Positions 20,098 to 52,816 of a stretch of DNA of 55,168 nucleotides are shown piece by piece. The DNA is from a virus. Its lineage: Duplodnaviria; Caudoviricetes. Within the stretch, counting starts at the first letter, position 1, and each line of letters begins with the position of its first letter. The notes under the pieces are model-generated. The model had not been told where the DNA came from and searched no databases. It worked only from the letters and a program-made list of their open reading frames with translations. Position numbers and translations under genes: made by a program. The DNA is taken from IMG/VR virus record IMGVR_UViG_3300020171_000035, positions 1-55,168 of that record. The stretch is one strand, 5' to 3'.

Positions 20098-23000
20098 ATG
20101 CCTAGCGCATATGAATTAAACCTTGAATACGGTCTTACCGACCCAGATGAACTTGAGGACATTGGCACAGAAGAAGAACGTTCCGAAGCGTTAATTAGTG
20201 CCAATTTACCTACTATAAAGTCTCCCGACCTTAATCTAGATCTAGATAGCGCCCTATTTCCTCCTGAAGAGGCTGCACCAATTGTTCCCATGAGTCTTGC
20301 GAAGGCTCCCCTAGTGTCTCGTATGGGACTTACAACCCAGCCCCCCAAGACCCGGGGTCCAATCTTTAAAACCGCAGAAACAATTCTTAGTCCAGCAGAA
20401 CAACTTAATCGTGAGTATGGCCTCGCCCCCCAGGTGGAGGGCATTATCCCGAAAGAAATTTCTCGTCCAGAAAGTCCCGCTACACGTCTCAACCGTGAAA
20501 TGGGTCTAGGCCCACTTACCCGCCCTATCGGTGAAACCAGGGATACGCAAGAACCTGGCACTCCCGTTTCTACCATCTTTAGGGATCTTATGGTCCCAGT
20601 CGAACCAACACCTCCGCTTCCACCCGAGAAGCCTGGTCTTATCGGGGAAGCACTCAGGGGTATACCGCATGGCGTTTTGCAGGTAGGGGAAATAGCTGGT
20701 GGATTAGTTGGTCTTGCCGGAGAGGTCACGGGTATTGAAGCGATAGAAAAAGTTGGCGCCCATCTACATAAAACCTTCCAGGAGATGAATGAAAAGTTTA
20801 AACCAACCGTGGCCGGATTTCAAGATATAGAATCCGTTGGTGATGCAGCAAGGTATCTTGGGCACGGATTTATGTCTATGTTACCGTTTATGGTTGGAAC
20901 ATTCGGTGTTGGTGCTGCCATACGTGGTGTCGTTACAAAGACGCTTGGTAAAGCGATTACGGAACGTGCTGCCGCAAAAGCTATCATCGGATTTTCATCG
21001 TTAGCCGCTGCTTCAACGATTGCTGAAACAGGTATAATCGCTAGTGAGCGTGTCGATGAGGGTATGAAGGCGGCCAGTCTCAATCTTCTCTGGGCTATAC
21101 CAGCCGGACTTATGGATGCACTTCCGGCATGGCGCTTACTGGGTAAATTGGGATGGTTCGGAAGGTCTGTTACTAAAAGAGCGGAACGGGAGGGCCTTCG
21201 TGCCGCTAGACACTATTTCATAAAGGAAGTTGGTAAACAGGGATTCTTTGAGGGTGTTACAGAATCTGCCCAGGAAGTTTTTGAAGCTATGGGTGCCGGA
21301 AAGAAACCATTTTCTTACGAAACTCTCATGCAGGCGGCGAACACATTTATCATTGCAGGCTTTACCGGTGGTATAATGGGTGGTGCGGTTACCCTATTAG
21401 GGCCATCACCCAAGAAGCAAGTTGCGCCCACTCCAACGGTTAAACCTCCAATAATTCCACCCGATATTACACGAGACCCTACGGATATCTTAAAACCCGC
21501 AGTTGTTAGACCGGATGTTGCGGCCCTATGGCAGGAAACTGTCTTCCCTGGCGTAGTGGAAGAACCCGTCCCGATGAATGAGGTGAGTAGGATATGGAGG
21601 AAATTCCTTGAAGGTACGGGTGTGTGGACCAATCTTGACGTAAAGAATGGTCAGATGATAATTGAGGATATTAAGGGGGGAAAATTATCTTCTGTTCTTA
21701 ATCCTGTCAGTCAAGTATTTGAATTATACGGTTATACCAATGTAAATGGTCAGTTTACGAAACTTGACCCAGGTGTTCCGTTACCCCGATCATTAATGGA
21801 TATTATCACTGAAGGGTTGGCATTAGGGAAACCCGCGGAAGTAAGGGTTGAGGGGGTAAAAAAACCAAGAAAAATTGGGTTGACCAGTTATTCCGGAAGA
21901 TTCGTTACGGCTGGATACGGAACTACAAAATATTCAGGAACCGAACGAATAACCCGTAAGAACTACAATGCTGCCTATGAACAGGGAGATCTACCAGAAG
22001 TTTGGTATGGCTATGGGGACGAACATGAAGTAGAACCCATGTTTGGGGGAATGCGTCCACAGAAGGTAGAGGCTGAATTCAAAATATTTGACAGGAAGTT
22101 AGCCACCAAGGAAGAACTGGCTGAGTTCAATGCCAAACAAGATGAGGTAGCCGCAAGGCTCGAAAGAAAATGGGGCTTTAATAGAAACATGCCCGACCAG
22201 GCCCAGGTCTTAGGATACCAGGCCGCCAAGGAATTAGGGTATGACGGCCTCAATACCGGCAGAGCTATTGCAATGTTCCATGATCTTCCAGTTCAAATGA
22301 GACCCAAGGAGGGTGCAATACGTGGCGTAATAGAGCCTACATTACCGCGTGGATATAACAGCGTTGAGGAATTTACTGATCCGATTAATACACCCCTTCG
22401 AACATCACAATATGCAATACTAACTGCCGCCAATCCTGGCAATGCAAAATTACCTGCACAGGAAAATGCGGTACGGAATAAGAAGTTAGTGAAGGAACTA
22501 AAGGATGCAGGATTTACCGTCATCCCAGTTCAGGGTAAATATGCTGGCTTGCGGGCACCCTCCTTCTTGGTCCCCGAAATGTCTAACGACCAAGCCCTTG
22601 AGTTTGGCATAAGGCATGGACAGGAAAGTGTCTTAGTACCGCGTGGCTTGCTATACCAAGATGGTTCTGTCAATCCAGCAAATCTAGATGCTATCGTATT
22701 TGACAATACCTTAACAGATAATTATACCGAAATCAATATCGGTGGGAAAAGGGTTCGATTTTCTACGCCCATAGATTTTGAGACCAAAATAGCGCGTGGC
22801 GCAGGTGTTACCGCAGCCCCAACTCCTCCCGGGGCAGGTCTCGTTCCTGCTGCCACGCCTTTTATTGAGGGAGCGAAAATCGATCTTCTTCATAAAGAGG
22901 TTGTTGAGCCCGCACTAGAACCCGTTAGGGAAGTTCCTGTTGCACCCGCAGCACCCCCGGGTCTTCCTCGTGGTTTCTTTGAAGCCGTTATCATGTTCGA

Positions 23001-26000
23001 CGAACAGGGATCTATTTCTGTTCGACCCATCTCATATGAATCAATACGTGAAGGTGTTGAGAATCTTCCAGGTTTTTTAGGTAAGGTATACCTCGATGCC
23101 AAGAAGGATACCGTCTATACCCCAGAAATGATGATAGCTAAGAATACAGGGGAAGCTATTAATGGTATCATGAGATCTAAAATTGAGTCACTTCCCGCCG
23201 AAGGTTTTCGTCCCGCGTTTCAGGAGTTACTTCCAGGAGAGAGGTTTAGGGCGAGGATGGCTGGGGAAGCTCCCCGGGGACCTTTTTGGACCACTTCTAG
23301 GGCTACATCATGGTCTGAACTTATCGAAACTGAAGTCGAAGAACGTGGTAATTATAGTACAGAAGAAGTTGAAATATGGAGGAAAAAGTATGGTCTAAGA
23401 CCAACCGATAGGGTAATTTGGGTATCTCCATCTAAGGCGGTTGCAGCATCATACCAGGTGTCTTCCGAAGAAATGGAATCCGTTAGGAACTTACCGGAGG
23501 ATCAGGTAGATGCTACCGAAGTTAGGCAACCCGGATTCATTATCCCCGAATCAGACGATGGTGATGGGGGATATCTTTATGTGATTCGCCCAGTGGATAT
23601 TGCCCGCGAAGCCATGCAGGAGATGGAAGGGCAGCCGATGTCGGTCATGGCTGTGCAGAAAATCATTGATACCTTCCAGGTTCAACTTCCAGCAGGTGTC
23701 CTTTCTTATGATGTTCCAAGTTCTGTGGACGAACTACCAGCAGATATCCGAAAGCGCAACAAGGTAACCGGAAAAACACAAGCCCTTTACGATCGCGTGC
23801 TCAATAGGGTATATATCATCGCAGACCGCCACACCTCCGAGCAAGATGTATTGACCTCTATAAGCCATGAACTATTTGCCCACTTCGGATTCGAGCGCCT
23901 ATTTGGTCCCCACCGTATGGATCAAATTGTGCAGGAAGTGCTCAAGTTCTACGGAAAAGAAAATCTTGCCTATCTCTATCAGGCATACAGTAAAATCCCT
24001 GGATCACCCGACGGTGACTACACGGTAGCCATCGAGAAGATCGCAGAATTCGCAGGCACTGGTGAAAACCCAGGATTATGGAAACGATTCGTATACTGGT
24101 TTCGTTATCACGCAACCAAACTGTTCGGCCCCATTCGTTTCTCTGAGGATGACATAAGGGCGTACCTCTGGCGTAGTCGTATCCTTATCCAACAGCAATC
24201 ATTCCAAGACCAGGTTCGTAAGTATAACGCTTTCGTAAAACTTACTGGTGCAAAGATGTGGGACAACGGATTACCCATTGGTCCACTCGGTGCCAGATTT
24301 GCCATGCGCGAAGATACATCCCCATCTCACGAAAGCGCTGCGGAAAACTTTACCGGATGGCGGGGATGGTATGAAGCATACAGTAATAAAAATAAAAACT
24401 TTGGGAACGAAATTTTTAAAAGGTTAGGGCTTATTGAATCGGTTGCCTCACTTCCCCATTGGATAAGTATGAACCATCCATCTTTTAAGCCAACCACACA
24501 GGTCCAGTGGGACAGGATGGACGAGAAAAATAGGGACAGGTTATACTTACTTCAAGATCCGGGGACCAATCAGGGGAATAATCCATACATGTCCGTTGAC
24601 GCCCTAAGGGATACCTCTAGTGTAGATCCACTTATTATATGGTCTGATCGAAACAATATTTACCTTGAAAGTGATGAAAATCTTCAATCAAAGGCACGAG
24701 AATTAATTCATCGCGATCTTACCAATACGGAGATTAAGGCATACCGTGGCTGGAAGGATGGTTTTGATCGAGCCGTAGATTATGCCATCGCAAGGCTTCG
24801 CCAGTTAGCTGTAGATTTTTATTCCAGTACGAAATGGTATGACCAGCTCAAGGGTGTTCTTGATAAATCATTACCCATGGAACAAGTTCAACTAGAGAGT
24901 AGTGATGCAAAAGATTTTCAACGTGCCCTCAATAAGGTGGCCGAACGAATGAAGGAAATTGATAGGCAGGAAGCCCAACTAAAGGGGTTTAACTTTTATG
25001 CACCTCATGTTCGTGGTCGTGGTGACCATATTGTTCGTGTGTACGATGTTGATCCAGAAGGTAAGGATGTAGCAATCTGGGTTGAACGTTTCGATAGCGC
25101 TACACAGGCCGAACAAGCCAGAATGAGATTAACCAGCCAATATAGAGATCTCCGAGTAGTGAAGACTCTTGAAAAACAAACAAGCGAATTTGTCTATGGC
25201 GGACTAAACATTTACGCCATGGAAGCCTTTCTGAAGAAATCTGCTGAGCGTGCCGTTAAGGAAGAAAAGATAAATGAGGCTGAGGCCGATACCCTCCTGA
25301 ATGCTGTTTTCAAAAGCATCAACGATGAAATTATGGCTCGGGGTTTTAGGCAACACTACATCCGCAGACAACAGGGTAACATTGGTGGTTATCGTGAAGA
25401 GAACCTTCGCCAAGTTTTTCTTGATTACATGTCGGGGCTTGCCGGTAGTATGGCAAAGCTCGATGCAACCAGAAAGTTTCACGATGCCCTCCAAAGTATA
25501 AACAAGGTTAACGAACCAGAAGTATATGAGTATGCATCCCGATATACCACGGATATGTTACGAAATCGGGATAGCCTTGACAATAAACTGAACTCCCTAA
25601 AGACGATACCTTATCTATGGTATATCAGCATGAACCTTCGTCTTGCCGCAACGCAGATGTTCCAGAATGGGATTACGGCCTATCCAATACTTTCTCGGAT
25701 CATGCAAGACCTAGGCGTAGAGGGCCATGCATCCACTGAACTTGCAAAAGCCATGAAAGATCTCGCCGGGAATATGACCGTGCAAGAACAGACTATGTTA
25801 CAAAACGCGTATAACGATGGCGAGACAATGGCTAACTTTATCCAAGAAATTAAGGGTGATATCAGCCGTAGTTGGGCTGGGAAATATTTTACCAAATTTG
25901 TAGACCTTGTTTCGTATCCATTCGCAGGAATGGAACGGTTTAATAGAAAATCGTCCCTCTTGGCCGCCTTCCGCGTTGCTCTTCGTGCAGGGCAAACCGA

Positions 26001-26985
26001 AACTGAGGCATATGAGACGGCAAAGGAATTTGTGCGCAGCGCTCACTATGCCTATGGACTTAATAATTTTCCACAATTACTTAGGGATGGAACTCCGTTT
26101 TCTAAGATTGCGGGATTAGGGTACGTGTTTAAAAGTTTTCCCCACAATTATGTCCTATCCATGATTCACTACGCGAAGGGTAAGGATGGAAAGTTGGCGC
26201 TTGGCGTACTCATGAGATCTCTTGCGATGCTCACCATTCTTGGTGGATTGGGTGCTGCCCCGTTTATAGACGACATCCTGGATGAATTCGAAAGGCAGAC
26301 GGGTTATCCCGCAAGGTCCGTTATAAGAAAATCTCTAGATAAAGTGGGCGGACCCCTCTTGGCCTCTGCTGGTATGGAGGGAATTCTGGCGCTCGTAGGT
26401 CTGGATATGTCCGGATCTACTAAGATTCAGATACCAATTCCTGGGGTTGGAGAATATAACCCGGGTGCCATTATGATGGGCGTTTATGGTGGACTTATCG
26501 ATAAGGGTAAGAACGCCATTACTTTCGCCGCAAATAACCAGTGGATGCGTGCCGTAGAATCTGCAATGCCCGCCGGTGTTGAGTCTGCCATTAAATCACA
26601 TAGATTAGCCACTGAAGGTCTTCGTACCGCAACCGGAAAACCAATCCTTGACGAACGGGGGAGACCGATTAAGGCGGGTCCATATGAGGTGGCGGTAGGC
26701 CTAGCGGGGTTTAGGCCGCAACGTATTGCTGAGGTACAAAAGGAACGTCGTGTAGCTCAGAATATTAAGGACGCTTATGCAGCAAGGCGCAAGAAGATTA
26801 TACGGAGAATGAGACTTGCCACGACACCGGAAGAAAGACGGGCATTATCTAAAGACATTCAGTCTTACAACCTTTCGGTCATGAAATATGGTAAGATCAT
26901 TCCTAAAATTGGGGCACAGTCCATTAAGCAGGCAATGCAACCCGAACGTGGATACATGGAATATGAAAGATTATACGAGGATTAG
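20098..26985 (+). CDS. Large polyvalent internal virion (ejection) protein, 2295 aa
   Basis: Hydrophobic G/A-rich segment with EGVTESAQE; DUF3293/SAM-lyase-like domain; zincin-like SHELFAHFG; helical LPD-type C-terminus. Confidence 0.75.
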   Translation: MPSAYELNLEYGLTDPDELEDIGTEEERSEALISANLPTIKSPDLNLDLDSALFPPEEAAPIVPMSLAKAPLVSRMGLTTQPPKTRGPIFKTAETILSPAEQLNREYGLAPQVEGIIPKEISRPESPATRLNREMGLGPLTRPIGETRDTQEPGTPVSTIFRDLMVPVEPTPPLPPEKPGLIGEALRGIPHGVLQVGEIAGGLVGLAGEVTGIEAIEKVGAHLHKTFQEMNEKFKPTVAGFQDIESVGDAARYLGHGFMSMLPFMVGTFGVGAAIRGVVTKTLGKAITERAAAKAIIGFSSLAAASTIAETGIIASERVDEGMKAASLNLLWAIPAGLMDALPAWRLLGKLGWFGRSVTKRAEREGLRAARHYFIKEVGKQGFFEGVTESAQEVFEAMGAGKKPFSYETLMQAANTFIIAGFTGGIMGGAVTLLGPSPKKQVAPTPTVKPPIIPPDITRDPTDILKPAVVRPDVAALWQETVFPGVVEEPVPMNEVSRIWRKFLEGTGVWTNLDVKNGQMIIEDIKGGKLSSVLNPVSQVFELYGYTNVNGQFTKLDPGVPLPRSLMDIITEGLALGKPAEVRVEGVKKPRKIGLTSYSGRFVTAGYGTTKYSGTERITRKNYNAAYEQGDLPEVWYGYGDEHEVEPMFGGMRPQKVEAEFKIFDRKLATKEELAEFNAKQDEVAARLERKWGFNRNMPDQAQVLGYQAAKELGYDGLNTGRAIAMFHDLPVQMRPKEGAIRGVIEPTLPRGYNSVEEFTDPINTPLRTSQYAILTAANPGNAKLPAQENAVRNKKLVKELKDAGFTVIPVQGKYAGLRAPSFLVPEMSNDQALEFGIRHGQESVLVPRGLLYQDGSVNPANLDAIVFDNTLTDNYTEINIGGKRVRFSTPIDFETKIARGAGVTAAPTPPGAGLVPAATPFIEGAKIDLLHKEVVEPALEPVREVPVAPAAPPGLPRGFFEAVIMFDEQGSISVRPISYESIREGVENLPGFLGKVYLDAKKDTVYTPEMMIAKNTGEAINGIMRSKIESLPAEGFRPAFQELLPGERFRARMAGEAPRGPFWTTSRATSWSELIETEVEERGNYSTEEVEIWRKKYGLRPTDRVIWVSPSKAVAASYQVSSEEMESVRNLPEDQVDATEVRQPGFIIPESDDGDGGYLYVIRPVDIAREAMQEMEGQPMSVMAVQKIIDTFQVQLPAGVLSYDVPSSVDELPADIRKRNKVTGKTQALYDRVLNRVYIIADRHTSEQDVLTSISHELFAHFGFERLFGPHRMDQIVQEVLKFYGKENLAYLYQAYSKIPGSPDGDYTVAIEKIAEFAGTGENPGLWKRFVYWFRYHATKLFGPIRFSEDDIRAYLWRSRILIQQQSFQDQVRKYNAFVKLTGAKMWDNGLPIGPLGARFAMREDTSPSHESAAENFTGWRGWYEAYSNKNKNFGNEIFKRLGLIESVASLPHWISMNHPSFKPTTQVQWDRMDEKNRDRLYLLQDPGTNQGNNPYMSVDALRDTSSVDPLIIWSDRNNIYLESDENLQSKARELIHRDLTNTEIKAYRGWKDGFDRAVDYAIARLRQLAVDFYSSTKWYDQLKGVLDKSLPMEQVQLESSDAKDFQRALNKVAERMKEIDRQEAQLKGFNFYAPHVRGRGDHIVRVYDVDPEGKDVAIWVERFDSATQAEQARMRLTSQYRDLRVVKTLEKQTSEFVYGGLNIYAMEAFLKKSAERAVKEEKINEAEADTLLNAVFKSINDEIMARGFRQHYIRRQQGNIGGYREENLRQVFLDYMSGLAGSMAKLDATRKFHDALQSINKVNEPEVYEYASRYTTDMLRNRDSLDNKLNSLKTIPYLWYISMNLRLAATQMFQNGITAYPILSRIMQDLGVEGHASTELAKAMKDLAGNMTVQEQTMLQNAYNDGETMANFIQEIKGDISRSWAGKYFTKFVDLVSYPFAGMERFNRKSSLLAAFRVALRAGQTETEAYETAKEFVRSAHYAYGLNNFPQLLRDGTPFSKIAGLGYVFKSFPHNYVLSMIHYAKGKDGKLALGVLMRSLAMLTILGGLGAAPFIDDILDEFERQTGYPARSVIRKSLDKVGGPLLASAGMEGILALVGLDMSGSTKIQIPIPGVGEYNPGAIMMGVYGGLIDKGKNAITFAANNQWMRAVESAMPAGVESAIKSHRLATEGLRTATGKPILDERGRPIKAGPYEVAVGLAGFRPQRIAEVQKERRVAQNIKDAYAARRKKIIRRMRLATTPEERRALSKDIQSYNLSVMKYGKIIPKIGAQSIKQAMQPERGYMEYERLYED

Positions 26986-32282: not shown

Positions 32283-32296
32283 GTCGAAAATTTTAC

Positions 32297-32324
32297 TTGA
32301 CAATTCCCCGTGGTCTGTTAAAGT
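32297..32324 (+). promoter_or_regulatory. sigma70 promoter of the rightward operon (divergent pair)
   Basis: TTGACA-N16-TAAAGT with TG extension. Confidence 0.55.
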
Positions 32325-32354
32325 AAGTTGTGTCATGAAAAGCCGGAGGACATC

Positions 32355-34875: not shown

Positions 34876-35322
34876 ATGGGATACGAAAGTTGTGCCAATA
34901 AGTACGGTAGTTACTTTACTCCTAAATTAAAAGACATATTCCGGGAAGCGGGCTGGAGTATACCGTATATTCTTGACCTGGTAGATGAACCGTGCGAGGA
35001 TCGTGAATGCTCACATCATGTTTTTGGTACTGCAAAAGAAATTCGCAATCTTAAATTGCCAAAGGTTGAACCGGTAGATATGCCATGGACCCTTCAGTGT
35101 CGTCGATGCATGTGTTTGCTTAACCTTATTCCTCGCTATTTATCGTCTACGGAAATTGCCGAGGTGTTTGGGGTTACAAGGCAGGCCGTTAACCTGATTG
35201 AACGTAGTGCGATCAAGAAAATCCAAAAAAGACTAAAGCTTATGGATGAACCATTTGCGAAAGGAGGAATCACCGTAAGGGAAAACTTACCGCCCGATGT
35301 GACTATCCCCGCGATAGCCTAA
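34876..35322 (+). CDS. Sigma70 region-4-like HTH regulator
   Basis: LSSTEIAEVFGVTRQAVNLIERSAIKKI preceded by Cys motifs. Confidence 0.75.
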   Translation: MGYESCANKYGSYFTPKLKDIFREAGWSIPYILDLVDEPCEDRECSHHVFGTAKEIRNLKLPKVEPVDMPWTLQCRRCMCLLNLIPRYLSSTEIAEVFGVTRQAVNLIERSAIKKIQKRLKLMDEPFAKGGITVRENLPPDVTIPAIA

Positions 35323-38079: not shown

Positions 38080-38815
38080 AATCGCCGCAGAAAAGAAACT
38101 CTGGCTAAGGGTGTTAGGCGAAGTTGGCTGTTACCCAATTTGGTACATTCGTAACCAAGATGGGAACACTAATCATCCTAGGCTCCTAATCGTATCCGGA
38201 TTTCACGGAGAGGAACGGGCTGGTCCGATTGCGCTTATTCAATGGCTTGAAGCCTTCGACCCTAATCTATACAAGAAGGTTCATCTATCTTTTATACCTA
38301 TCATTAATCCTGTGGGATTTAATAAGAACCAACGCTATAACGATGAGAAAGAAAGAACTAACTGCGGGTTCTGCCATCCGGAGTCCGGAGACAGGCCCTC
38401 ACAAGAAGGTCTTATTCTTCTAAAGAATTCCCAACTCTTAAAAAATTCATCGAAGCACGGATTCCTATCGTTGCATGAAGATATATCATCTGAAAAGTTT
38501 TATCTGTATACGTTTGAAAGGGAGACCGAGTATACTGCATTCACTCGCGAGCTTCGAGATACGCTTGGCTCTTTTTTTAAAGACCCATTACACGGAGAAA
38601 TGGTAACCACTGACGCCCACGGGGGGGATGGTGTCTTGGTTGAAAACGGTATCGTGTATAAATTATGCGACGGATCATTTGAGGACTGGTTATTCCACGA
38701 GGGTACCATAAAGGCGGCGACAACTGAGACTCCTGGTACGTACCCACTAAAAATTAGGGTCAACGCAAATGTGGCGCTGATCACAAAGTTTATTGAATTA
38801 CTTGGGGGTATATAA
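38045..38815 (+). CDS. M14-family zinc carboxypeptidase / succinylglutamate desuccinylase-like protein
   Basis: SGFHGEERAG, PIINPVGF..NQR, LSLHED, TTETP. Confidence 0.85.
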   Translation: MTTIGLYKRLYRIAAEKKLWLRVLGEVGCYPIWYIRNQDGNTNHPRLLIVSGFHGEERAGPIALIQWLEAFDPNLYKKVHLSFIPIINPVGFNKNQRYNDEKERTNCGFCHPESGDRPSQEGLILLKNSQLLKNSSKHGFLSLHEDISSEKFYLYTFERETEYTAFTRELRDTLGSFFKDPLHGEMVTTDAHGGDGVLVENGIVYKLCDGSFEDWLFHEGTIKAATTETPGTYPLKIRVNANVALITKFIELLGGI

Positions 38816-40115: not shown

Positions 40116-41267
40116 ATGATAACCATTGAAGATATCAAGATGCAGTTCTCGAAGTATCTCTGCCTATCCGATACAGACGTAATCGATGTGATGCTAGGTA
40201 CCGTGGTCGCCAATAGAATGCCTGGGGATTCGGTCAGTCTATATATCATTGGTCCATCATCGTCTGCGAAGACTGAGTTGGTTCGTTCGTTGATAGATTA
40301 TAGGCATACCTATCACCTCACTAAAATTACCCCTCACACGCTTGTTTCTGGATACCAGGATAGGGCAAAAAGGGGCGAGAACTTTTCCCTCTTAACCAAA
40401 CTCCAGAAGGAGGGGAGAAATATTCTCGTCTTTAAAGACTTCACGACCATTCTATCCATGAGGCGCGAAGACAGGAGTGAGTTTATCTCCCAGCTTCGTG
40501 AAATGGCTGACGGGTATATTTGTGGCGATTACGGGAATGCCCAGCACTTTGAACTCAAGGAACACATTGGAGTGATTGCAGCCTGTACGAATGCTATCGA
40601 CGAGTTTGATTCGGTCAACGGCATCCTGGGCGAAAGATTCCTAAAATATAGGATCTCGGCGGAAATGGCCGAGGCGATAGCCAAGATAGCAATGGAGAGC
40701 AATAACGATAAGGAGAACCTACGTAACGAGGCCGCCAGGCTGGTAGTAGAGTTCTTGGGTCGATTTGAGGTTATTTGTGACCTTCCCACGTGGTACGAAG
40801 AATGCCGAAGCCGTATCCAAAATCTATGTATTTTTGGAGCCCACCTGCGGAGTCCAATTATCAAAGATCCCCAGGGTATTCAACTAAGCCCGGTAGATCA
40901 TGAAGGCCCCGGGCGGCTAATTTCCAGCCTTGACAAGCTTGCCAAGGGGATTGCCATGGTGCAGGGGGAATCCGTCATTTCTCCGACTGTATACCCTATT
41001 ATTAAGAAGGTCGTAAAGGACACCGTACCCCCTTACCGACTCCTGGTGGTTAAGTCCGTATTTGAACATGAAGAAATCACCACCAAAGATCTCGCTACCG
41101 ATCTGCGCGTACATTGGAGGACAGCCCAGAAGTATTGTGAGGACCTTCGATCGATAGGGATACTTCGGGACACCAAGGACAGTGAGAATCGCAACCTATG
41201 GTCTATTAACGAGTCATACGTGAAATGGATCAAGGATTCCCAGATCTTCGTTATAGATAGGTTCTAA
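40116..41267 (+). CDS. MCM-like AAA+ replicative helicase with C-terminal winged helix
   Basis: IGPSSSAKTE, KDFTTIL, LREMADG, GERFL; wHTH TTKDLA..L. Confidence 0.7.
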   Translation: MITIEDIKMQFSKYLCLSDTDVIDVMLGTVVANRMPGDSVSLYIIGPSSSAKTELVRSLIDYRHTYHLTKITPHTLVSGYQDRAKRGENFSLLTKLQKEGRNILVFKDFTTILSMRREDRSEFISQLREMADGYICGDYGNAQHFELKEHIGVIAACTNAIDEFDSVNGILGERFLKYRISAEMAEAIAKIAMESNNDKENLRNEAARLVVEFLGRFEVICDLPTWYEECRSRIQNLCIFGAHLRSPIIKDPQGIQLSPVDHEGPGRLISSLDKLAKGIAMVQGESVISPTVYPIIKKVVKDTVPPYRLLVVKSVFEHEEITTKDLATDLRVHWRTAQKYCEDLRSIGILRDTKDSENRNLWSINESYVKWIKDSQIFVIDRF

Positions 41268-45363: not shown

Positions 45364-45597
45364 ATGGCAGTGAAAGAAGATAAATTTATAGTGTTTCCCA
45401 AAAAAGATTTGGTTGGCATATCGGCTGCTCAGGTGGCGACATTGGATGAGATTGACCAATTAGTCCAAAGGAATCGCATAAAACGAGGGGCCAGTCAGTT
45501 CCCGAAATTTATCACCTGTAACCAGGATGAACCATATGCCGAGAAAGTGTGGCAAATTATCCTGGACGGAGAAACGGCTAAAAAACATTCTGTATAA
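45364..45597 (+). CDS. Conserved phage hypothetical protein
   Basis: KFIV..K.D..N.DEPYA..V..II..GE; RBS GGAGGT. Confidence 0.6.
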   Translation: MAVKEDKFIVFPKKDLVGISAAQVATLDEIDQLVQRNRIKRGASQFPKFITCNQDEPYAEKVWQIILDGETAKKHSV

Positions 45598-46620: not shown

Positions 46621-47098
46621 AAAACGCATAGCGTGGAATAAGGGATTAACCAAAGAAACGGATGAACGTGTTAAAAAATATGTAGATAATGGAAGTGGAT
46701 TACCCAAGGGTCACATTCCATGGAATAAGGGATTATTGGGATATAATAAAGATGTCGTTCATACACCAGAATGGAACGCAAGGGTGTCCATCGGGGTGAA
46801 ACGGTATTATTCGGATAAGCTAAAAACTACCAGATGTGGTCCGCTCGGACGTACGTGGACTCAAGGCATTATGGAGCGAGATTTTTGGATATGTAGGGTG
46901 TGTGGCAAGCCCGCCGTGATTGCACATCATATTTGTCCATGGAAAGAATTTCCAGAATATACGCTGGAAGCGTGGAATGGTGTATCAGTTTGTAAGGGGT
47001 GTCATAATAGGGTCCACAATCTTAAGGTCGGTATCGAAAAATTATGGATCATAACACGTCAAGACCTTGCCCTCATATTTCCTCTGGCTCCGCAATAA
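46613..47098 (+). CDS. HNH endonuclease with NUMOD-like WNKG repeats
   Basis: AWNKGL, PWNKGL, RDFWICRVCG..AHHI..NGVSVCKGCH. Confidence 0.8.
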   Translation: MNRKRIAWNKGLTKETDERVKKYVDNGSGLPKGHIPWNKGLLGYNKDVVHTPEWNARVSIGVKRYYSDKLKTTRCGPLGRTWTQGIMERDFWICRVCGKPAVIAHHICPWKEFPEYTLEAWNGVSVCKGCHNRVHNLKVGIEKLWIITRQDLALIFPLAPQ

Positions 47099-47471
47099 AC
47101 AACTTCCCAAGCTCTCCCAGCTTACCAAACCACTCCGCCTTTTCCAGCATTTCTTGCTGTGCAATGGACCTCATCGACTTCAATGTTCCACCCTCGGTCA
47201 TTACGTGACGTTCCAGACACATCTCCGTTCCGTTCCACATCTTCAGGCCAAGCGTGGTAGGATCGGGGGATTCCCCCTGGGACCTCATAGATCGTATCCA
47301 TTCTGACACCCCCAAACTCAGCATAACACTACACGCCCTGGAAAAGATATAGGTATCTGGTATATGCTTTAAGGCGTTACATGCCTGGCTCATACCGTAA
47401 CTATCAATCTGTAATGCGATGATGGAGGTTAGCTGAATATCATCTGGCAAATTAGAGATTGTGTTATACAT
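47073..47471 (-). CDS. Hypothetical protein
   Basis: RBS GGGGGTGA; last gene of the leftward operon. Confidence 0.5.
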   Translation of the reverse strand: MYNTISNLPDDIQLTSIIALQIDSYGMSQACNALKHIPDTYIFSRACSVMLSLGVSEWIRSMRSQGESPDPTTLGLKMWNGTEMCLERHVMTEGGTLKSMRSIAQQEMLEKAEWFGKLGELGKLFIAEPEEI

Positions 47472-47575
47472 TTAGTTATCACCCCCCCTAATATGATGTT
47501 CCACACCCCACACATTTCCAGTGGGGGTAAACGTTAAGTGTCATACAGTTAATGCATAACCACACAAACGGACCC

Positions 47576-47869
47576 TTACACTTCTTTCGTTTCACATTTT
47601 TCACAGCGATATGCCTCCATTACGTTAGGATAAGAGAATCGTATATCGAGCCATTCCCCGCACGTATCGCACTTGCCGGCATATTGAATTGGGATCATAT
47701 CTTCTGATTGACAGCAAGTCGTAACCTCTATTGGCCGAATATACTCCGGGTGCGTTAGGTGGTCGAGATCATCAAATCTACCATGTTTGTCCACCACAAT
47801 CGTGGTAGACAATCTCCAGCACTTCATGCACACTCCGTAGCTATCTCTTGCTATTTTATAATGATTCAT
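47576..47869 (-). CDS. Cys-rich hypothetical protein
   Basis: Multiple CxxC motifs; RBS AGGGG. Confidence 0.5.
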   Translation of the reverse strand: MNHYKIARDSYGVCMKCWRLSTTIVVDKHGRFDDLDHLTHPEYIRPIEVTTCCQSEDMIPIQYAGKCDTCGEWLDIRFSYPNVMEAYRCEKCETKEV

Positions 47870-47878
47870 TTTGTACCC

Positions 47879-48145
47879 CTATTTTGTAATTAAAGACCTT
47901 AAAAACTCCTGAGAATACTCCCCACTTTTGTACACTTTGACCGTAGCACATAACCTCTCATTGGCAGCCACCATGTATTTATCAAGCAATCTCTGAATTT
48001 CTGTGCATTCCCTGATGTATCCGTCCCCGGACATGAGGTCTTCCTCGCCCTCCACTTCGTCATTAGGGGGATCATCATAGAAACCGTCACTGTTAACCTT
48101 AGATAGGTCCCCCTTTGATATTTTAGAGTCCACCCTGTCAAGCAT
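47879..48145 (-). CDS. Acidic hypothetical protein
   Basis: RBS AGGGGG; downstream of promoter 48171-48198. Confidence 0.45.
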   Translation of the reverse strand: MLDRVDSKISKGDLSKVNSDGFYDDPPNDEVEGEEDLMSGDGYIRECTEIQRLLDKYMVAANERLCATVKVYKSGEYSQEFLRSLITK

Positions 48146-48170
48146 GTAGCACCCCCTTTCGGATAGTAAT

Positions 48171-48198
48171 ATTTTACACCATCTTTTTAGATTGTCAA
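48171..48198 (-). promoter_or_regulatory. sigma70 promoter
   Basis: TTGACA-N16-TAAAAT. Confidence 0.5.
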
Positions 48199-48387
48199 GT
48201 AATCATCCTCCTGATGATTTATGGTAGATTCATCAGTTTGTAGTGCAGACCATTCAAGCAAACTCAGGATAGATGCCTTACTGGGTAACAACAAAGAATT
48301 ATGCATTATCGCATCGGCCAGTAATTCATCGAGAGCCTGGTGTAGTTTCCGATGTTTTCTTACGTGTCTGTATTTTTTCCATTCCAC
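48187..48387 (-). CDS. Conserved phage hypothetical protein
   Basis: H..LH..LDELLAD.I.H....PS..SI..L..WS. Confidence 0.55.
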   Translation of the reverse strand: MEWKKYRHVRKHRKLHQALDELLADAIMHNSLLLPSKASILSLLEWSALQTDESTINHQEDDYLTI

Positions 48388-48544
48388 CTTGGATCACCTC
48401 TATTTTTTGTAATTTCTCAATTTTCTTCATCTCCACCCTGAAACACTTCGGACAATATCCATGAGTGACAGACTTATCCTTAAATGGTTCCTTCTCTCCG
48501 AATATCACCCAACATATACAGCATTGACGCACCAACTCAATCAC
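48326..48544 (-). CDS. Zinc-finger protein
   Basis: CCIC..GEK.P....VTHGYCPKC. Confidence 0.55.
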   Translation of the reverse strand: MIELVRQCCICWVIFGEKEPFKDKSVTHGYCPKCFRVEMKKIEKLQKIEVIQGGMEKIQTRKKTSETTPGSR

Positions 48545-48581
48545 CTCCTATTGAAATTGAATAATTCAAGTTGAATAATGG

Positions 48582-48839
48582 CTAGCACTCCCTGCACTCC
48601 ACACAGTCGCAAAGTGGTCGGGTGCAGACTTCCCCCCTACAATATAGGGCCACAGCCTCGCCTCCAATTTCAATACTATTGGGTAATGGGTAGGCATTAA
48701 TCGCTACGGTCTCTAAGCATACTTTACATTGGGAATATGCCTTACTAATGTTTCCATAATTCTTGAAATGTTCCATCTTATGCCCTCTAAATCTACACGA
48801 TTCAAGGGCTTCCCGCTTTAATCTTTCAATTTTTCTCAT
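48582..48839 (-). CDS. Cys-rich hypothetical protein
   Basis: C..RGH.M..F..C..C..I.GEAVAL.C; RBS GGAGGTGA. Confidence 0.55.
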   Translation of the reverse strand: MRKIERLKREALESCRFRGHKMEHFKNYGNISKAYSQCKVCLETVAINAYPLPNSIEIGGEAVALYCRGEVCTRPLCDCVECREC

Positions 48840-48851
48840 CTTTATCACCTC

Positions 48852-49055
48852 CTATTTTATTGTGACCTTTTTATTAAGGATAAACTTTCTGGGACTAAAT
48901 TCGTTTCCATCCCTATTAAGCTTTTCGATGAGGGTAATCTCATCTTCAGAAACGCCCCCCTTATCCATCATTAACCCCTCAAGGGCATCTTCCCACGCCT
49001 CATCCGGGGTTTCTCCCATAGCATTTAGGGTGACCGTAAATTCATAACGCTTCAT
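48852..49055 (-). CDS. Hypothetical acidic protein
   Basis: RBS GGAGGTGA; YEF.V.L...GETPDEAW.DA. Confidence 0.55.
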   Translation of the reverse strand: MKRYEFTVTLNAMGETPDEAWEDALEGLMMDKGGVSEDEITLIEKLNRDGNEFSPRKFILNKKVTIK

Positions 49056-49242
49056 TTTTATCACCTCCCCCTTTCAAATTCTTCATCCTCTCTGATCTCT
49101 TTATCCTCTCTTCATCGGAGATATTTATAACCCTTACCACCTGGCATTTCTCACGTATCCGCTTACACGTTCCAGCGGATAAGTTCCGGTCACACACTAT
49201 TTCATCCATTCTTTGCTCCTTACTATCACACCATCTGAACAT
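49042..49242 (-). CDS. Hypothetical protein
   Basis: RBS GAGGTGA. Confidence 0.5.
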   Translation of the reverse strand: MFRWCDSKEQRMDEIVCDRNLSAGTCKRIREKCQVVRVINISDEERIKRSERMKNLKGGGDKNEAL

Positions 49243-49415
49243 TTTATCACCTCAATTAAATTCTACGATTTGATATTCCCATGAGCAATTTTTCTTAGCG
49301 TATCTTTCCGCTTTTTTCTTGGTATCGAAAGAAATGGACCCCCCACTTTCGTCCGGGTCCAATATAACCTGAACATACGGTAAACAACCCAAGATTTCAA
49401 TAATGAAAAACATAG

Positions 49416-49772
49416 TCAATCACCTCCCTTTAAAAGATTTTTCTCAATATACCGATACGCCTGCTCTCGATTACTGAACCTTTGGAATCCATCTCCATCA
49501 TTTATCTTGACATTACGAATGTCGCCTTCAAGATTAAATAACCGGATGGTCCATTTCCGGGGTTCCCTATAATCGGTAAAAACCGACACAAACCTTTCGC
49601 TGGTAACAAAGTAAACACCCTCCGGGGCCTCGAATATTCGGGGTTCCAGCTTAGACTTGAACCCCTTCATCGTTAAGCGGTCAAAGAAATGGCTTCCGGT
49701 GACTTTCGCAACGGCAACCAATTCTTCGGAGTTCCTGATTTGATAATGGTTTCCTTCGATTGTAAATTCCAT
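49416..49772 (-). CDS. Conserved early phage protein (DUF7447-like)
   Basis: GSHFFDR.TM..F.S......YFVTSE...R.WTIR. Confidence 0.6.
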   Translation of the reverse strand: MEFTIEGNHYQIRNSEELVAVAKVTGSHFFDRLTMKGFKSKLEPRIFEAPEGVYFVTSERFVSVFTDYREPRKWTIRLFNLEGDIRNVKINDGDGFQRFSNREQAYRYIEKNLLKGGD

Positions 49773-49774
49773 TT

Positions 49775-49981
49775 TTAGTTCCCCCCCTTTCTATTGATAA
49801 TTCCGGCCTCAATCAACGCCATTGCAGTCCTACCGAGGCATCCCTGAAGTGTCCAGGCCATTCCAGTATCGACGAGATACTGCTATGCCTCAACCTGCTC
49901 TTCCCTGCTTGCACCCTCACCCTCACAAAATCCCTCAGCGATAGCTGTTGCTAAATAAGGTGTCATTTTAATCTTTTTCAT
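49775..49981 (-). pseudogene. Conserved small phage gene (DUF7417-like) with in-frame TAG
   Basis: RBS GGGAGG, MKKIKMTPYLATAIAEGF..EEQVEA*QYLVDTGMAWTLQG..GRTA..LIEAG; TAG at 49883-49885. Confidence 0.65.
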
Positions 49982-50171
49982 TTTTCAATACCTCCCGGAG
50001 ATGAGGACCGGAATCCTCACCTCCTATATTTTATTATGTATTACTTCCCGGAGAAAGATGTTAAACCACCCCTTACCATAAATCGAACCCCGGTATATAA
50101 ATCTTTATATACCTCGAATGTGGTTCCGAACCTCCCCTCCATCTCTCCGACGTATAACAATCCTATCTTTT

Positions 50172-50414
50172 TCATTCCCTATCACCCCCCTCTAATGGAA
50201 TATTTTTAAATGACTTCCGGGAATAGCCCCATTCCTTAATCATCATTTTTCTATGCTCCGGGTCATTACATTTACAGGACCCATCTTCCCGGTAATGCTC
50301 TGGAGCCATAATAAAAAACTGGCACTTTCCAATATCTGATTGTTTAATTAATCGAACATTTGTTACTGTTCCATCTGGAAATAATGTTCCGAATTGAATT
50401 TTATGCTCTTCCAT
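50172..50414 (-). CDS. Hypothetical protein
   Basis: RBS GGAGG; C...I..PEHYR.DGSCKC. Confidence 0.55.
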   Translation of the reverse strand: MEEHKIQFGTLFPDGTVTNVRLIKQSDIGKCQFFIMAPEHYREDGSCKCNDPEHRKMMIKEWGYSRKSFKNIPLEGGDRE

Positions 50415-50439
50415 TTTACCATACCTCCTTATTATAGAT

Positions 50440-50805
50440 TTATTTAAGATATATCTCTTGACCATTCTCAATATCCCATATTGCAATTTGACCCTCAGTT
50501 AAACCTTTTTGAATTGCCTTATCCCGGTCCAGAACCCATACTGATATATCAATATAAACCTTTTCGTTTGCCTTGTCAAGCCATATACCAATGAATTGCT
50601 TATTATAAATTATCTCATATTGTATGAAAAGTTTATTGATAGTTAAGAATAAACTTTCAGGAGTGAAATTTTTAAGGTCAATAACTATACCCTGACCTCT
50701 TAATGAAACGAAAAAACCGGTTTGCTTCTTAACCTGAACCAACCGGGAAGTTAAGGTTATACCGCCATCTGTTAGGACATTGTGATATAATCTTTTGAAT
50801 TGCAT
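50440..50805 (-). CDS. Conserved early phage protein, possibly SAM-lyase-like fold
   Basis: GGIT..GFFVS..IGIWLD...VYIDIS......AI..G...GQIAIWD....EI. Confidence 0.5.
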   Translation of the reverse strand: MQFKRLYHNVLTDGGITLTSRLVQVKKQTGFFVSLRGQGIVIDLKNFTPESLFLTINKLFIQYEIIYNKQFIGIWLDKANEKVYIDISVWVLDRDKAIQKGLTEGQIAIWDIENGQEIYLK

Positions 50806-50817
50806 AAGACCTCCAAT

Positions 50818-51417
50818 TTAGAAGATTTTTAACTGTAGTTGACCAGTATATGAAGTCATTGACTTAACAATTCGATGGTATGTTAACCATACAATAGCTT
50901 GAAATTGACAAGGTAACAAGTCATACCGAATTGATAAATTCTTAATTTCGACCTTTAATGTTTCAATATGCTTAGGTGTCATAAACCTTTTAAGATTGTC
51001 AATATTTAGGTCATTATAAAAACAGGATAACATAAATCGATCAATAGTAATACAGCTATCGTCAAACGGATTAAGAAGATTAAAGTAAAATTGAACTACT
51101 TTCGGACCTCTTAAATGAGGAAAGACTTTTTTTGTCCTATAAATATTTAATGCCCTATAAATGTTTGCCTTATAGCAAGATGTTTTAATATGAGATAGTT
51201 TACCTTTGAACTTTAAAATATTATAGGTTAGGATAGTGTTTTGACTCCATGACAACCCCGGAGAGGTGACGGCTGTAATCCCGCAAACGATCTTCAGGGG
51301 CACGTTAAAATGTTCGGCCATGTCCTTTAGATAGTTATGACTGTCATTATACCAGTGAAAACCAGCGTTACGCTCGAATTGGTTTGCTTGTAGGAATGTT
51401 GATTCGAAGTTATTCAT
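50818..51417 (-). CDS. DUF7178-like protein (HhH DNA-glycosylase-related)
   Basis: G..WY, A..SP..SW..N, GPKV..F..N, TID..M, QAI.W. Confidence 0.65.
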   Translation of the reverse strand: MNNFESTFLQANQFERNAGFHWYNDSHNYLKDMAEHFNVPLKIVCGITAVTSPGLSWSQNTILTYNILKFKGKLSHIKTSCYKANIYRALNIYRTKKVFPHLRGPKVVQFYFNLLNPFDDSCITIDRFMLSCFYNDLNIDNLKRFMTPKHIETLKVEIKNLSIRYDLLPCQFQAIVWLTYHRIVKSMTSYTGQLQLKIF

Positions 51418-51418
51418 C

Positions 51419-51577
51419 TTACTTGACCTCTCGATATGATTTAACTTGATAACATAAATTACAAAGTTTAACCTTTAACTGCTCTTTGCATATATGGCAA
51501 TCACAATTAAAAACCGTAAACTTAGTTTCGCAACCCCTACAGGTTAATTCTTTTGAGGTCCAGAACTTTTTAACCAT
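51419..51577 (-). CDS. Small Cys-rich protein, first gene of the leftward operon
   Basis: ATG 51577 with RBS GGAGG at 51586-51590; CRGC..CDCHIC..LCNLC. Confidence 0.6.
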   Translation of the reverse strand: MVKKFWTSKELTCRGCETKFTVFNCDCHICKEQLKVKLCNLCYQVKSYREVK

Positions 51578-51606
51578 CTTTTTAACCTCCGTTTGAACCT
51601 TATTAA

Positions 51607-51622
51607 TGCAAACGATATGCCA
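51607..51622 (-). promoter_or_regulatory. sigma54 (RpoN) -24/-12 promoter
   Basis: TGGCATATCGTTTGCA, matching GG-N10-GC and the consensus TGGCAC-N5-TTGCW, positioned just upstream of RBS and ATG. Confidence 0.75.
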
Positions 51623-51856
51623 GAACACAATAAATCTTTCAAATATAAACCATAATAAATTCAATAGGTTAAAAATGGGTTAATTTCATGAGAAACGTCA
51701 GGTATGTAAAGTTTACATAGTACTTTAACTATAACCACTTAACTAATTGAATATATTAAATAAATACCCATGACATTTATTGCATGGAGGGTCCAAAAAA
51801 CGTCACATGAAATGGAATGTTTCTGATAGACAGCTATGTGACCAAATGTCATAAAC

Positions 51857-51892
51857 TCGACAAAATTGTCGAAAGCTCGACAAAAATGTCGA
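51857..51892. repeat. Tandem palindromic operator-like sites
   Basis: TCGACAAAATTGTCGA and TCGACAAAAATGTCGA with 20-bp period. Confidence 0.75.
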
Positions 51893-52140
51893 AGTATATA
51901 CAAAGGCAATACATTGCATAGCCATCCCTTTATATAGATAGCCTGTAATAATTCTTAGATAAGAATCATTCTAAGCTGGAATGCCCTTCAAATGCTCACC
52001 ATCGTAACCTGCTGCCCGGAGCCATACCAATATGGACCGGGTTCGGGGTTAACCCATCATAACAAATCAATATAATAGTCAATACGTTAACCTGTTTACA
52101 TTTCATAGTGTATGAAATTGAATTGATCTAAATGAATTAC

Positions 52141-52168
52141 TTGACACTCCCCGATGGTATGGTATGAT
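52141..52168 (+). promoter_or_regulatory. sigma70 promoter of the rightward genes
   Basis: TTGACA-N16-TATGAT with TG extension. Confidence 0.55.
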
Positions 52169-52343
52169 GATCGTAACCGGGGGAGCAGTCGAGAGGGCCC
52201 CGAATAGGTAGTAAACCCGTCCCCCTATGGTTCTCTCTATCACACGGTGCGTCTATAACCCCCGGGGCCCGGGGGCACTCTTTTTGGACTTTTACTGCGT
52301 AGAAAAGTGGGTGGTATGAAAAATTATTCCTCATGGAGGTGAC

Positions 52344-52511
52344 ATGAAAATATTACTTGAGTGTCCAGATGCTTACGGGAACTTTATTTTTCAAAAAGAT
52401 ACTGTATGGAATATAAAATTTGATTCGTATCCATCACAATATTGTCATTTTACAGTTTTGGATATTATCTCACCTGATCCGTCGCAACCTTTCGACGAAT
52501 GGAACTGGTGA
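52344..52511 (+). CDS. Hypothetical protein (55 aa, not in the ORF track)
   Basis: RBS GGAGGTGA then ATG; MKILLECPDAYG...WNW*. Confidence 0.55.
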   Translation: MKILLECPDAYGNFIFQKDTVWNIKFDSYPSQYCHFTVLDIISPDPSQPFDEWNW

Positions 52512-52594
52512 TACCCGGGGGCAGTCCCTAAATAAATCCGAATCCGTATAAAAAGGGTGGTACCAAATAATTTTTTTAAAATTTCAGGAGGGAA

Positions 52595-52816
52595 ATGGAA
52601 ATGAAGGATCTTTGTTATAAGTGTATCGAGGAACGTAATGGTGCTATCTATTTTGGATGGGATAGTGAACACTGTCATCATGAACCGAGGGAGAAGCCGG
52701 AGTCAAAATGTACTATTTGCGAAAAGGGTTCCTTTACAACCTATGTGAGTAGTGAGGGTAGATACACGTTGATTATCGTAAAGTTCTGCCCCGAGTGTGG
52801 AAAATCTTTAATTTAA
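52595..52816 (+). CDS. Cys-rich hypothetical protein
   Basis: RBS AGGAGG; ends FCPECGK. Confidence 0.6.
   Translation: MEMKDLCYKCIEERNGAIYFGWDSEHCHHEPREKPESKCTICEKGSFTTYVSSEGRYTLIIVKFCPECGKSLI

Follow-up and report, generated by a model that had tools for sequence, protein, structure and literature searches.

Considering that a 770-nt gap in this phage genome separates two divergent blocks of small genes, and that a −24/−12 element of the sigma-54 type stands at the head of the leftward block, the question raised by this locus is which polymerase and which regulatory sites control transcription out of the gap. A sequence-only reading had proposed a sigma-54-dependent early promoter backed by IHF-like sites, an FNR-like site and an array of many different palindromes, through which the phage would borrow several host activators. 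Every sequence described in that reading was confirmed; what the sequences are likely to do is analyzed below.

The window is the whole record IMGVR_UViG_3300020171_000035 (55,168 bases), a linear sequence from an uncultured groundwater phage that is estimated to be 86% complete. Its genes include those for virion proteins, an endolysin, a tyrosine integrase, and proteins of recombination and replication. The gap lies between the ATG at 51577, from which one block is read leftward, and the ATG at 52344, from which the other is read rightward, and it would constitute the main control region of this integrase-carrying phage. Judging from its content of small ORFans together with a DUF7178 gene, the leftward operon is of an early or accessory kind. 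In the Lentibacter phage ICBM1, the DUF7178 gene is located 2.1 kb from the left terminal repeat, amid small genes. The 52-aa product of the first leftward gene had no family match in Pfam or PHROGs. A blastn search of the gap region against INPHARED returned no match, a tRNA search of the window found none, and Rfam gave no match in the whole window at gathering scores and a single chance-level snoRNA match at E ≤ 1 within 51400-52700. Elsewhere in the window, a 2295-aa protein (20098-26985, plus strand) carries a DUF3293 domain and is distantly similar to families of DarB-like antirestriction and virion proteins. The features of the leftward side are as follows.

47073..51577, minus strand: leftward operon of about 15 small genes, including those for DUF7178 (50818-51417) and DUF7447 (49416-49772)
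51419..51590, minus strand: first leftward gene and its ribosome-binding site (GGAGG at 51590-51586, ATG at 51577, 52 aa, several CxxC pairs)
51595..51597, minus strand: putative transcription start, about 12 nt 3′ of the GC, placed by sigma-54 promoter geometry
51607..51622, minus strand: sigma-54-type −24/−12 element TGGCAT-ATCGT-TTGCA, that is TGGCATATCGTTTGCA, with GG at 51621-51620 and GC at 51609-51608

The −24/−12 element and its conservation

Sigma-54 promoters start transcription about 12 nt after the GC of the −12 box. The element TGGCATATCGTTTGCA has the GG-N10-GC geometry, and its GC is located about 18 nt upstream of the GGAGG and 31 nt upstream of the ATG at 51577, on the same strand, so that a start near 51596 would leave a leader of only about 5 nt before the ribosome-binding site, which counts against the sigma-54 reading. 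The earlier description of a near-consensus element placed before the first ribosome-binding site was borne out: apart from TGGCATATCGTTTGCA, the 55-kb window contains no exact match to TGGCAY-N5-TTGCW, and 100 dinucleotide shuffles gave a mean of 0.05 matches (at least one match in 5 of the 100). When one mismatch was allowed, the window held 4 matches against 3.11 expected, and therefore only the exact site stands out. It also received the top score in an ad hoc weighted sigma-54 scan of the window (15.2 of 15.2). A site at 45414-45429 on the plus strand, TGGCATATCGGCTGCT, whose first 10 letters are identical to those of the promoter element, lies inside a reading frame that starts from an ATG at 45365 behind a GGAGG, and was set aside as a chance occurrence.

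To find related loci, we used an alignment (A1) of the 199-aa DUF7178 protein (50818-51417) and its 21 homologues, which share 57-91% identity, and scanned IMG/VR and metagenome contigs with it, which yielded 13 loci (L001 to L013). In six of them, the DUF7178 gene is preceded by 1 kb of sequence or more; these include two identical pairs (L003 and L011, L006 and L007) and thus represent four distinct relatives, whose DUF7178 proteins are 86% (L004), 62% (L006) and 58% (L003 and L010) identical to that of the window. L001, L002, L005 and L012 are cut within the gene and cannot be judged. No element was found in the short upstream stretches of L008 (310 nt) and L009 (351 nt), or in L013, a 29% match.

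The search for the same architecture in related phages was positive for the element itself: TGGCAT-N5-NTGCW, on the strand of the operon, heads that operon in each of the four distinct relatives for which enough upstream sequence was available. The sequences are TGGCATACCGTTTGCT, TGGCATGAGGTTTGCT and TGGCATGGCATGTGCA, the last of which occurs in two of the relatives. Across L001 to L013 (55,334 bases, both strands) the pattern matched nine times, always at operon heads and never on the opposite strand. In an alignment (A2) of the five distinct sequences, that is the window and the four relatives, 9 of 11 core positions, the GG and the GC among them, are invariant as compared with 1 of 5 spacer positions, 7 of 40 columns upstream, 6 of 40 downstream (13 of 80 in the flanks) and 98 of 978 other columns, and the element is the only long invariant block. 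The spacers read ATCGT, ACCGT, GGCAT or GAGGT. A sixth variant came from a contig about 90% alike (runs X3 and X4), in which four of the five spacer positions are changed, while none of the 28 listed differences, out of 37 in the piece, falls within TGGCAT or TTGC. The first genes behind the element are unrelated among the four lineages, indicating that coding constraint does not explain its conservation. No sigma-70-like hexamer pair is kept across the relatives at the position of the element.

These features suggest that 51622-51607 is probably a real sigma-54-type promoter of the leftward operon. Against this, the sigma-54 holoenzyme is reported to occupy many sites without productive transcription (PMC4591121), and in the complete, terminally repeated relative G001 the relaxed pattern has 7 matches, 6 of which are located elsewhere in the genome. 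In the cultured DUF7178 phages Lentibacter ICBM1, Roseobacter SIO1 and Maribacter Panino, the strict pattern had no match within 3 kb of the gene.

Further elements of the same type were observed around the main site in several loci. L010 contains two full GG-N10-GC elements 19 nt apart (2020-2054), the second copy being upstream; L006 contains a weaker TGGTAT-N5-TTGCA at 2226, which is 207 nt downstream of the main site and ahead of the second gene; and L003 contains extra TGGCA-type elements near the main site (2256, 2360, 2468 and 2485). In run X1, which may be the source sample, summed contig depth was 148 at 51587-51627, over the sigma-54 element, and about 100-123 at 52038-52201, over the sigma-70 promoter and its palindrome, as against about 45-60. 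More related contigs therefore align at both promoter islands than in the rest of the gap. None of the runs recorded as RNA contains this stretch.

Palindromes, a dyad family and IHF-like sites

Upstream of the element, the gap contains the following features.

51653-51672 and 51739-51758: pair of 20-nt inverted repeats flanking the −115 palindrome
51703..51719: palindrome TATGTAAA-G-TTTACATA, centre about −115 from the putative leftward start
51839..51892: three dyads of one family, GACA-N3/4-T/GGTC, with a 20-nt period and centres about −249, −268.5 and −288.5 from the putative leftward start
51906-51917, 51951-51966 and 51962-51972: lineage-specific palindromes GCAAT-AC-ATTGC, ATTCTTA-GA-TAAGAAT and AGAAT-C-ATTCT
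51975..52055: GC-rich spacer segment with no Rfam match

We counted palindromes with perfect arms and a spacer of 0-6 nt in 51590-52140 and compared the counts with those of 1000 dinucleotide shuffles. Palindromes with arms of at least 5, 6, 7 and 8 nt numbered 11, 6, 5 and 2, respectively, whereas the shuffle means were 5.15, 1.40, 0.385 and 0.082, and the shares of shuffles that reached the observed counts were 0.023, 0.002, 0 and 0.002. The proposed enrichment thus withstood the shuffle test, most clearly for arms of at least 7 nt, where none of the 1000 shuffles reached 5. The region is the densest 551 nt of the window, with 5 of its 27 palindromes with arms of at least 7 nt. In the relatives, the fraction of such palindromes that falls in the gap is 3 of 6 (L004), 7 of 10 (L006), 4 of 6 (L003) and 2 of 3 (L010).

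Most of these sites are not shared. The −115 palindrome TATGTAAA-G-TTTACATA is kept only in the closest relative, L004, with one arm change (2 of 5 sequences), and the palindromes at 51906-51972 are absent from L003, L010 and L006. At the same place a 10-nt unit is repeated 5.3 times in tandem in L003, and L006 has large palindromes of its own, one with 13-nt arms. The gap is therefore always palindrome-rich, with mostly lineage-specific sites. On the minus strand, the fold of the GC-rich segment is unremarkable (z −1.41). Outside the gap, the leftward operon contains the window's longest perfect palindrome (50092-50113, 10-nt arms, GGTATATAAA-TC-TTTATATACC).

The dyads at 51839-51892 behave differently. 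They comprise TGAC-N5-GTCA and two copies of TCGACA-N4-TGTCGA, and the family is found nowhere else in the window. The sequence GACATTTTGTC occurs four times in L004, once in L003, once in L010 and not at all in L006, and is thus kept in three of the four relatives. Two minus-strand ORFs across the dyads (40 aa and 56 aa) were rejected as genes, because the conservation there is that of a DNA motif and not of a reading frame. One dyad copy is centred at −288.5 in the window, −290 in L004, −289 in L003 and −289 in L010 relative to the inferred sigma-54 start, an agreement that involves two lineages only and in which the window and L004 offer three and four copies to match. By contrast, the distance from the same copy to the sigma-70 start of the rightward promoter (see below) varies from about 290 to 384 nt, as calculated from the coordinates. 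A distance that is fixed to one start and variable to the other suggests coupling to the sigma-54 promoter. The dyad array is accordingly placed, by position and conservation, as the best candidate for an enhancer of that promoter, an assignment that we make tentatively: the dyads, at about −250 to −290, are more distant than is usual for an enhancer, and L006 has the promoter but lacks them.

The palindromes and repeats may alternatively represent operators of the phage's own repressor, or iterons of a replication initiator, and not an enhancer, which would be compatible with a real sigma-54 promoter. The 20-nt-period array of the window, the tandem 10-nt units of L003 and the large palindromes of L006 are all what such a cluster could look like; they occur in AT-rich DNA (GC 0.33 in 51590-52140), they differ by lineage as motifs do in immunity regions, and the gaps of the four relatives are all rich in palindromes. 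Yet among the genes flanking the gap there is no HTH family match, hence no adjoining HTH repressor gene, and the replication genes are 10-19 kb away. In addition, 225 nt or more separate the dyads from the core elements of both promoters, so that they cannot work by simple occlusion, and the constant distance of one dyad is to the sigma-54 element and not to the sigma-70 promoter. We therefore regard an operator or origin cluster as rather unlikely, and the dyad array remains the candidate enhancer.

The IHF consensus is WATCAANNNNTTR. In the region, no exact match was found, and five matches with one mismatch were present against 1.82 expected, a count reached by 3.2% of 500 shuffles. The two IHF-like sites named in the sequence-only reading, 51659-51671 and 51740-51752, are among these five and are contained in the pair of 20-nt inverted repeats. 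The block TGAATTTATTA of this inverted repeat stretch is also kept in L004 and L006, but the IHF-like core is altered in L006, so that the sites, although present, are weak and only partly conserved.

Sigma-70 promoters and the rightward leader

The right-hand part of the gap and the adjoining leader contain the following features.

52057..52083, minus strand: possible weak leftward sigma-70 promoter, TTGACT-15-TATGAT with TG, 10 of 12 hexamer positions
52100..52118: palindrome ATTTCATA-GTG-TATGAAAT, centre about −66 from the rightward sigma-70 start
52141..52168, plus strand: strong rightward sigma-70 promoter, TTGACA-16-TATGAT with upstream TG, 11 of 12 positions
52259..52285, plus strand: terminator-like hairpin and T run in the rightward leader of about 170 nt, ahead of the gene at 52344

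An equivalent of the rightward sigma-70 promoter is present in L004, L003 and L010. L004 and L010 retain the palindrome ATTTCATA-N3-TATGAAAT, which takes the form ACTTCAT-N5-ATGAAGT in L003; its offset from the sigma-70 start, in part calculated from coordinates, is about −66 in the window, L004 and L003, and −77 in L010, one helical turn further. Because this offset is conserved, the palindrome, which is about 510 nt from the sigma-54 site, belongs to the sigma-70 promoter and is not a sigma-54 enhancer. FNR/CRP-type sites have the consensus TTGAT-N4-ATCAA and are centred near −41.5. The FNR-like site that had been pointed out, TTGAT-CTAA-ATGAA, is indeed present at 52123-52136, but one of its half-sites carries a mismatch to this consensus, its centre is about −45.5 from the inferred sigma-70 start, and it is kept only in L004; it does not qualify as a site of the FNR/CRP type.

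The gap, in which sigma-54-type and sigma-70 promoters occur together, is therefore a divergent control region that combines at least two types of promoter. It is possible that the sigma-70 candidate at 52083-52057 also feeds the leftward operon. In a stronger version of this idea, a sigma-70 promoter such as this one would be what feeds the operon, and the TGGCAT...TGC block would bind some other factor, for example a phage regulator. The candidate does face left, with an extended −10 promoter matching 10 of 12 positions, and a similar candidate with a 15-nt spacer exists in L003; moreover, extra TTGGCA copies upstream of the main site in L003 and L010 are what would be expected of a repeated protein-binding site. 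But the candidate is not kept in L004 or L010, and the block has no dyad symmetry. By contrast, a GG and a GC fixed 10 nt apart around a free spacer, in a fixed orientation, are the expectation for a −24/−12 promoter, and in the window and L006 the element stands directly ahead of the ribosome-binding site. Binding of another factor is therefore quite improbable, and the sigma-54-type promoter is retained as the reading of the element.

The many different palindromes of the sequence-only reading are all present and enriched, but three of them make up one dyad family, one belongs to the opposite, sigma-70 promoter, and the others are lineage-specific and not kept beyond the closest relative. 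In favour of a multi-input array that recruits several host activators, several distinct palindrome types are significantly over-represented ahead of the sigma-54-type promoter, and no phage activator is encoded. Such an array nevertheless finds no support and is very improbable, as is a transcription-factor sponge, which would predict many copies, not 1 to 3.

The start of the rightward leader is conserved together with its promoter (window 52141-52345, plus strand; minus strands of L004:315-519, L003:1700-1884 and L010:1243-1427), and a conserved motif, CCGGRGGRGCAGTC, directly follows the −10 element. The terminator-like hairpin is not evident in L004. The RNA fold of the rightward leader is not unusual (z +1.63), and the consensus fold of the four leaders is weak. 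A unit of about 60 nt, CCCGGGGGCA[C/G]TC ... AAA[G/A][T/A]GGGTGGTA, occurs at 52268-52328 and again at 52514-52574, 246 nt apart, each copy being directly upstream of a small rightward gene (52344 and 52595, respectively). At 32290-32345 on the plus strand, the block of recombination and replication genes is preceded by a second sigma-70-like promoter. Its −35 context, CTTGACA-N-T-N-CCC, is also that of the promoter at 52140, and the two may therefore represent one phage promoter class.

A host activator and comparison with known systems

Sigma-54 promoters are silent until an ATP-driven activator, an AAA+ enhancer-binding protein, fires. As the sequence-only reading had remarked, no enhancer-binding ATPase (PF00158) is encoded in the window, and the same is true of G001; sigma-54 itself (PF04552) and Fis-type HTH domains (PF02954) are likewise absent from both. 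Since neither genome supplies an activator, the activator, like the polymerase, would be that of the host.

We assign a probability of roughly 0.62 to the explanation as a whole, namely that the main control region contains a host-sigma-54 promoter served by a host activator, with the distal dyads as the best but less certain candidate for its enhancer. Host sigma-54 RNA polymerase would bind 51622-51607 as a closed complex, and transcription would begin near 51596 only once an AAA+ enhancer-binding protein remodels that complex. The tandem GACA-N3/4-TGTC dyads (about −250 to −290) are the best candidate for the site to which this protein would bind, and between them and the promoter the DNA could possibly be bent by way of the AT-rich IHF-like stretch (about −45 to −75). 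The rightward block would be driven by the sigma-70 promoter at 52141-52168, with the conserved palindrome about 66 nt upstream of its start, and the remaining palindromes would be lineage-specific sites for other regulators, probably phage-encoded. What the sequences show directly is the motif, its uniqueness and pattern of conservation, the dyad family with its spacing, and the lack of phage activator genes; that the promoter depends on sigma-54, where it starts, which sites form the enhancer and that the activator comes from the host are inferred from these.

In this scheme, the leftward block would probably fire only when the host activator protein is switched on. Because sigma-54 promoters need an activator, placing a phage operon under one connects it to a host signal and not to the default transcription machinery. 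A further reading, which we consider unlikely, is that the whole clade gates one of its two early-type operons on a particular host enhancer-binding protein, through the sigma-54 promoter and distal dyads at a fixed distance; if so, expression of that operon, and possibly also the lysis-lysogeny decision, would report a host physiological signal without a phage-encoded sensor. Alternatively, and as part of the same unlikely reading, a phage protein unlike known AAA+ activators would open the sigma-54 complex. The element occupies the main divergent control region and persists throughout a clade in which the neighbouring genes are otherwise mosaic, which makes it a clean and testable case; the promoter and dyads could be assayed with a promiscuous activator in a laboratory host.

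The searches for a host did not point to a particular one. The DUF7178 alignment had no match among genome contigs, a scan with the endolysin returned nothing beyond a Paenibacillus match at 38% and a fragment of 17 residues, neither of which is usable, and the integrase matched mixed phyla in the ESM Atlas. The structural proteins are about 26% identical to those of Pseudomonas F116/H66-like phages, a likeness that is too distant to name a host.

Bacteria have enhancer-dependent sigma-54 promoters such as glnAp2, Pu and pspA, in which the enhancer is usually located at −80 to −200. The phage locus shares with them the GG-N10-GC core with TGGCA and TTGC, upstream dyads with an AT-rich IHF-like stretch in between, and a position directly ahead of the operon that is, or would be, regulated. 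It differs in that no activator gene is present, in that the candidate enhancer is further out (about −250 to −290), and in that its sigma-54 dependence is a prediction.

In lambda-type early control regions, divergent early operons are separated by repeated dyads that overlap the promoters, and a repressor gene adjoins. The window resembles them in having back-to-back early-type operons with repeated dyads between and an integrase. By contrast, one of its arms is of the sigma-54 type, its dyads lie off both core promoters by the distance given above, and neither a repressor gene nor any HTH match flanks the region, so that the gap does not classify as a lambda-like operator array.

The motif of the activator GlrR is TGTC-N10-GACA. 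The sigma-54 promoters of glmY and glmZ are reported to have three GlrR sites and IHF (PMC3045617). The window shares with these promoters several tandem dyads of TGTC/GACA half-sites and IHF-like sequence upstream of a sigma-54 promoter, whereas the spacing and orientation of the half-sites differ (GACA-N3/4-TGTC in the window).

The present case is not the first of its type. One report describes the use of sigma-54 by phages as rare but with a precedent, and development of the Pseudomonas phage YuA as strictly dependent on host sigma-54 (PMC5053324), and another describes a sigma-54-like YuA promoter detected by ONT-cappable-seq (bioRxiv 10.1101/2023.10.13.562163). A literature search for a sigma-54 promoter at a phage early control region found none, and only YuA surfaced. 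The YuA GenBank record annotates −24/−12 promoter features at 38392-38570, 40888-41035 and 47152-47312, among structural genes. The strict pattern had no match in 50,000 bases of YuA, and thus none in the three annotated promoters; the YuA fragments depart further from the bacterial consensus than does the element of the window. The two phages, which are unrelated, would share reliance on host sigma-54, predicted in the case of the window, but in the window the element is located in a divergent control region before small genes and not amid structural genes as in YuA.

Two proteins encoded on the plus strand of the window are candidate phage DNA-binding regulators, judging from their profile matches. 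A 148-aa protein (34876-35322) has a sub-threshold match to sigma-70 region 4 and a counterpart with 45% identity in G001, and a 383-aa protein (40116-41267) has a weak HTH match and a counterpart with 54% identity in G001.
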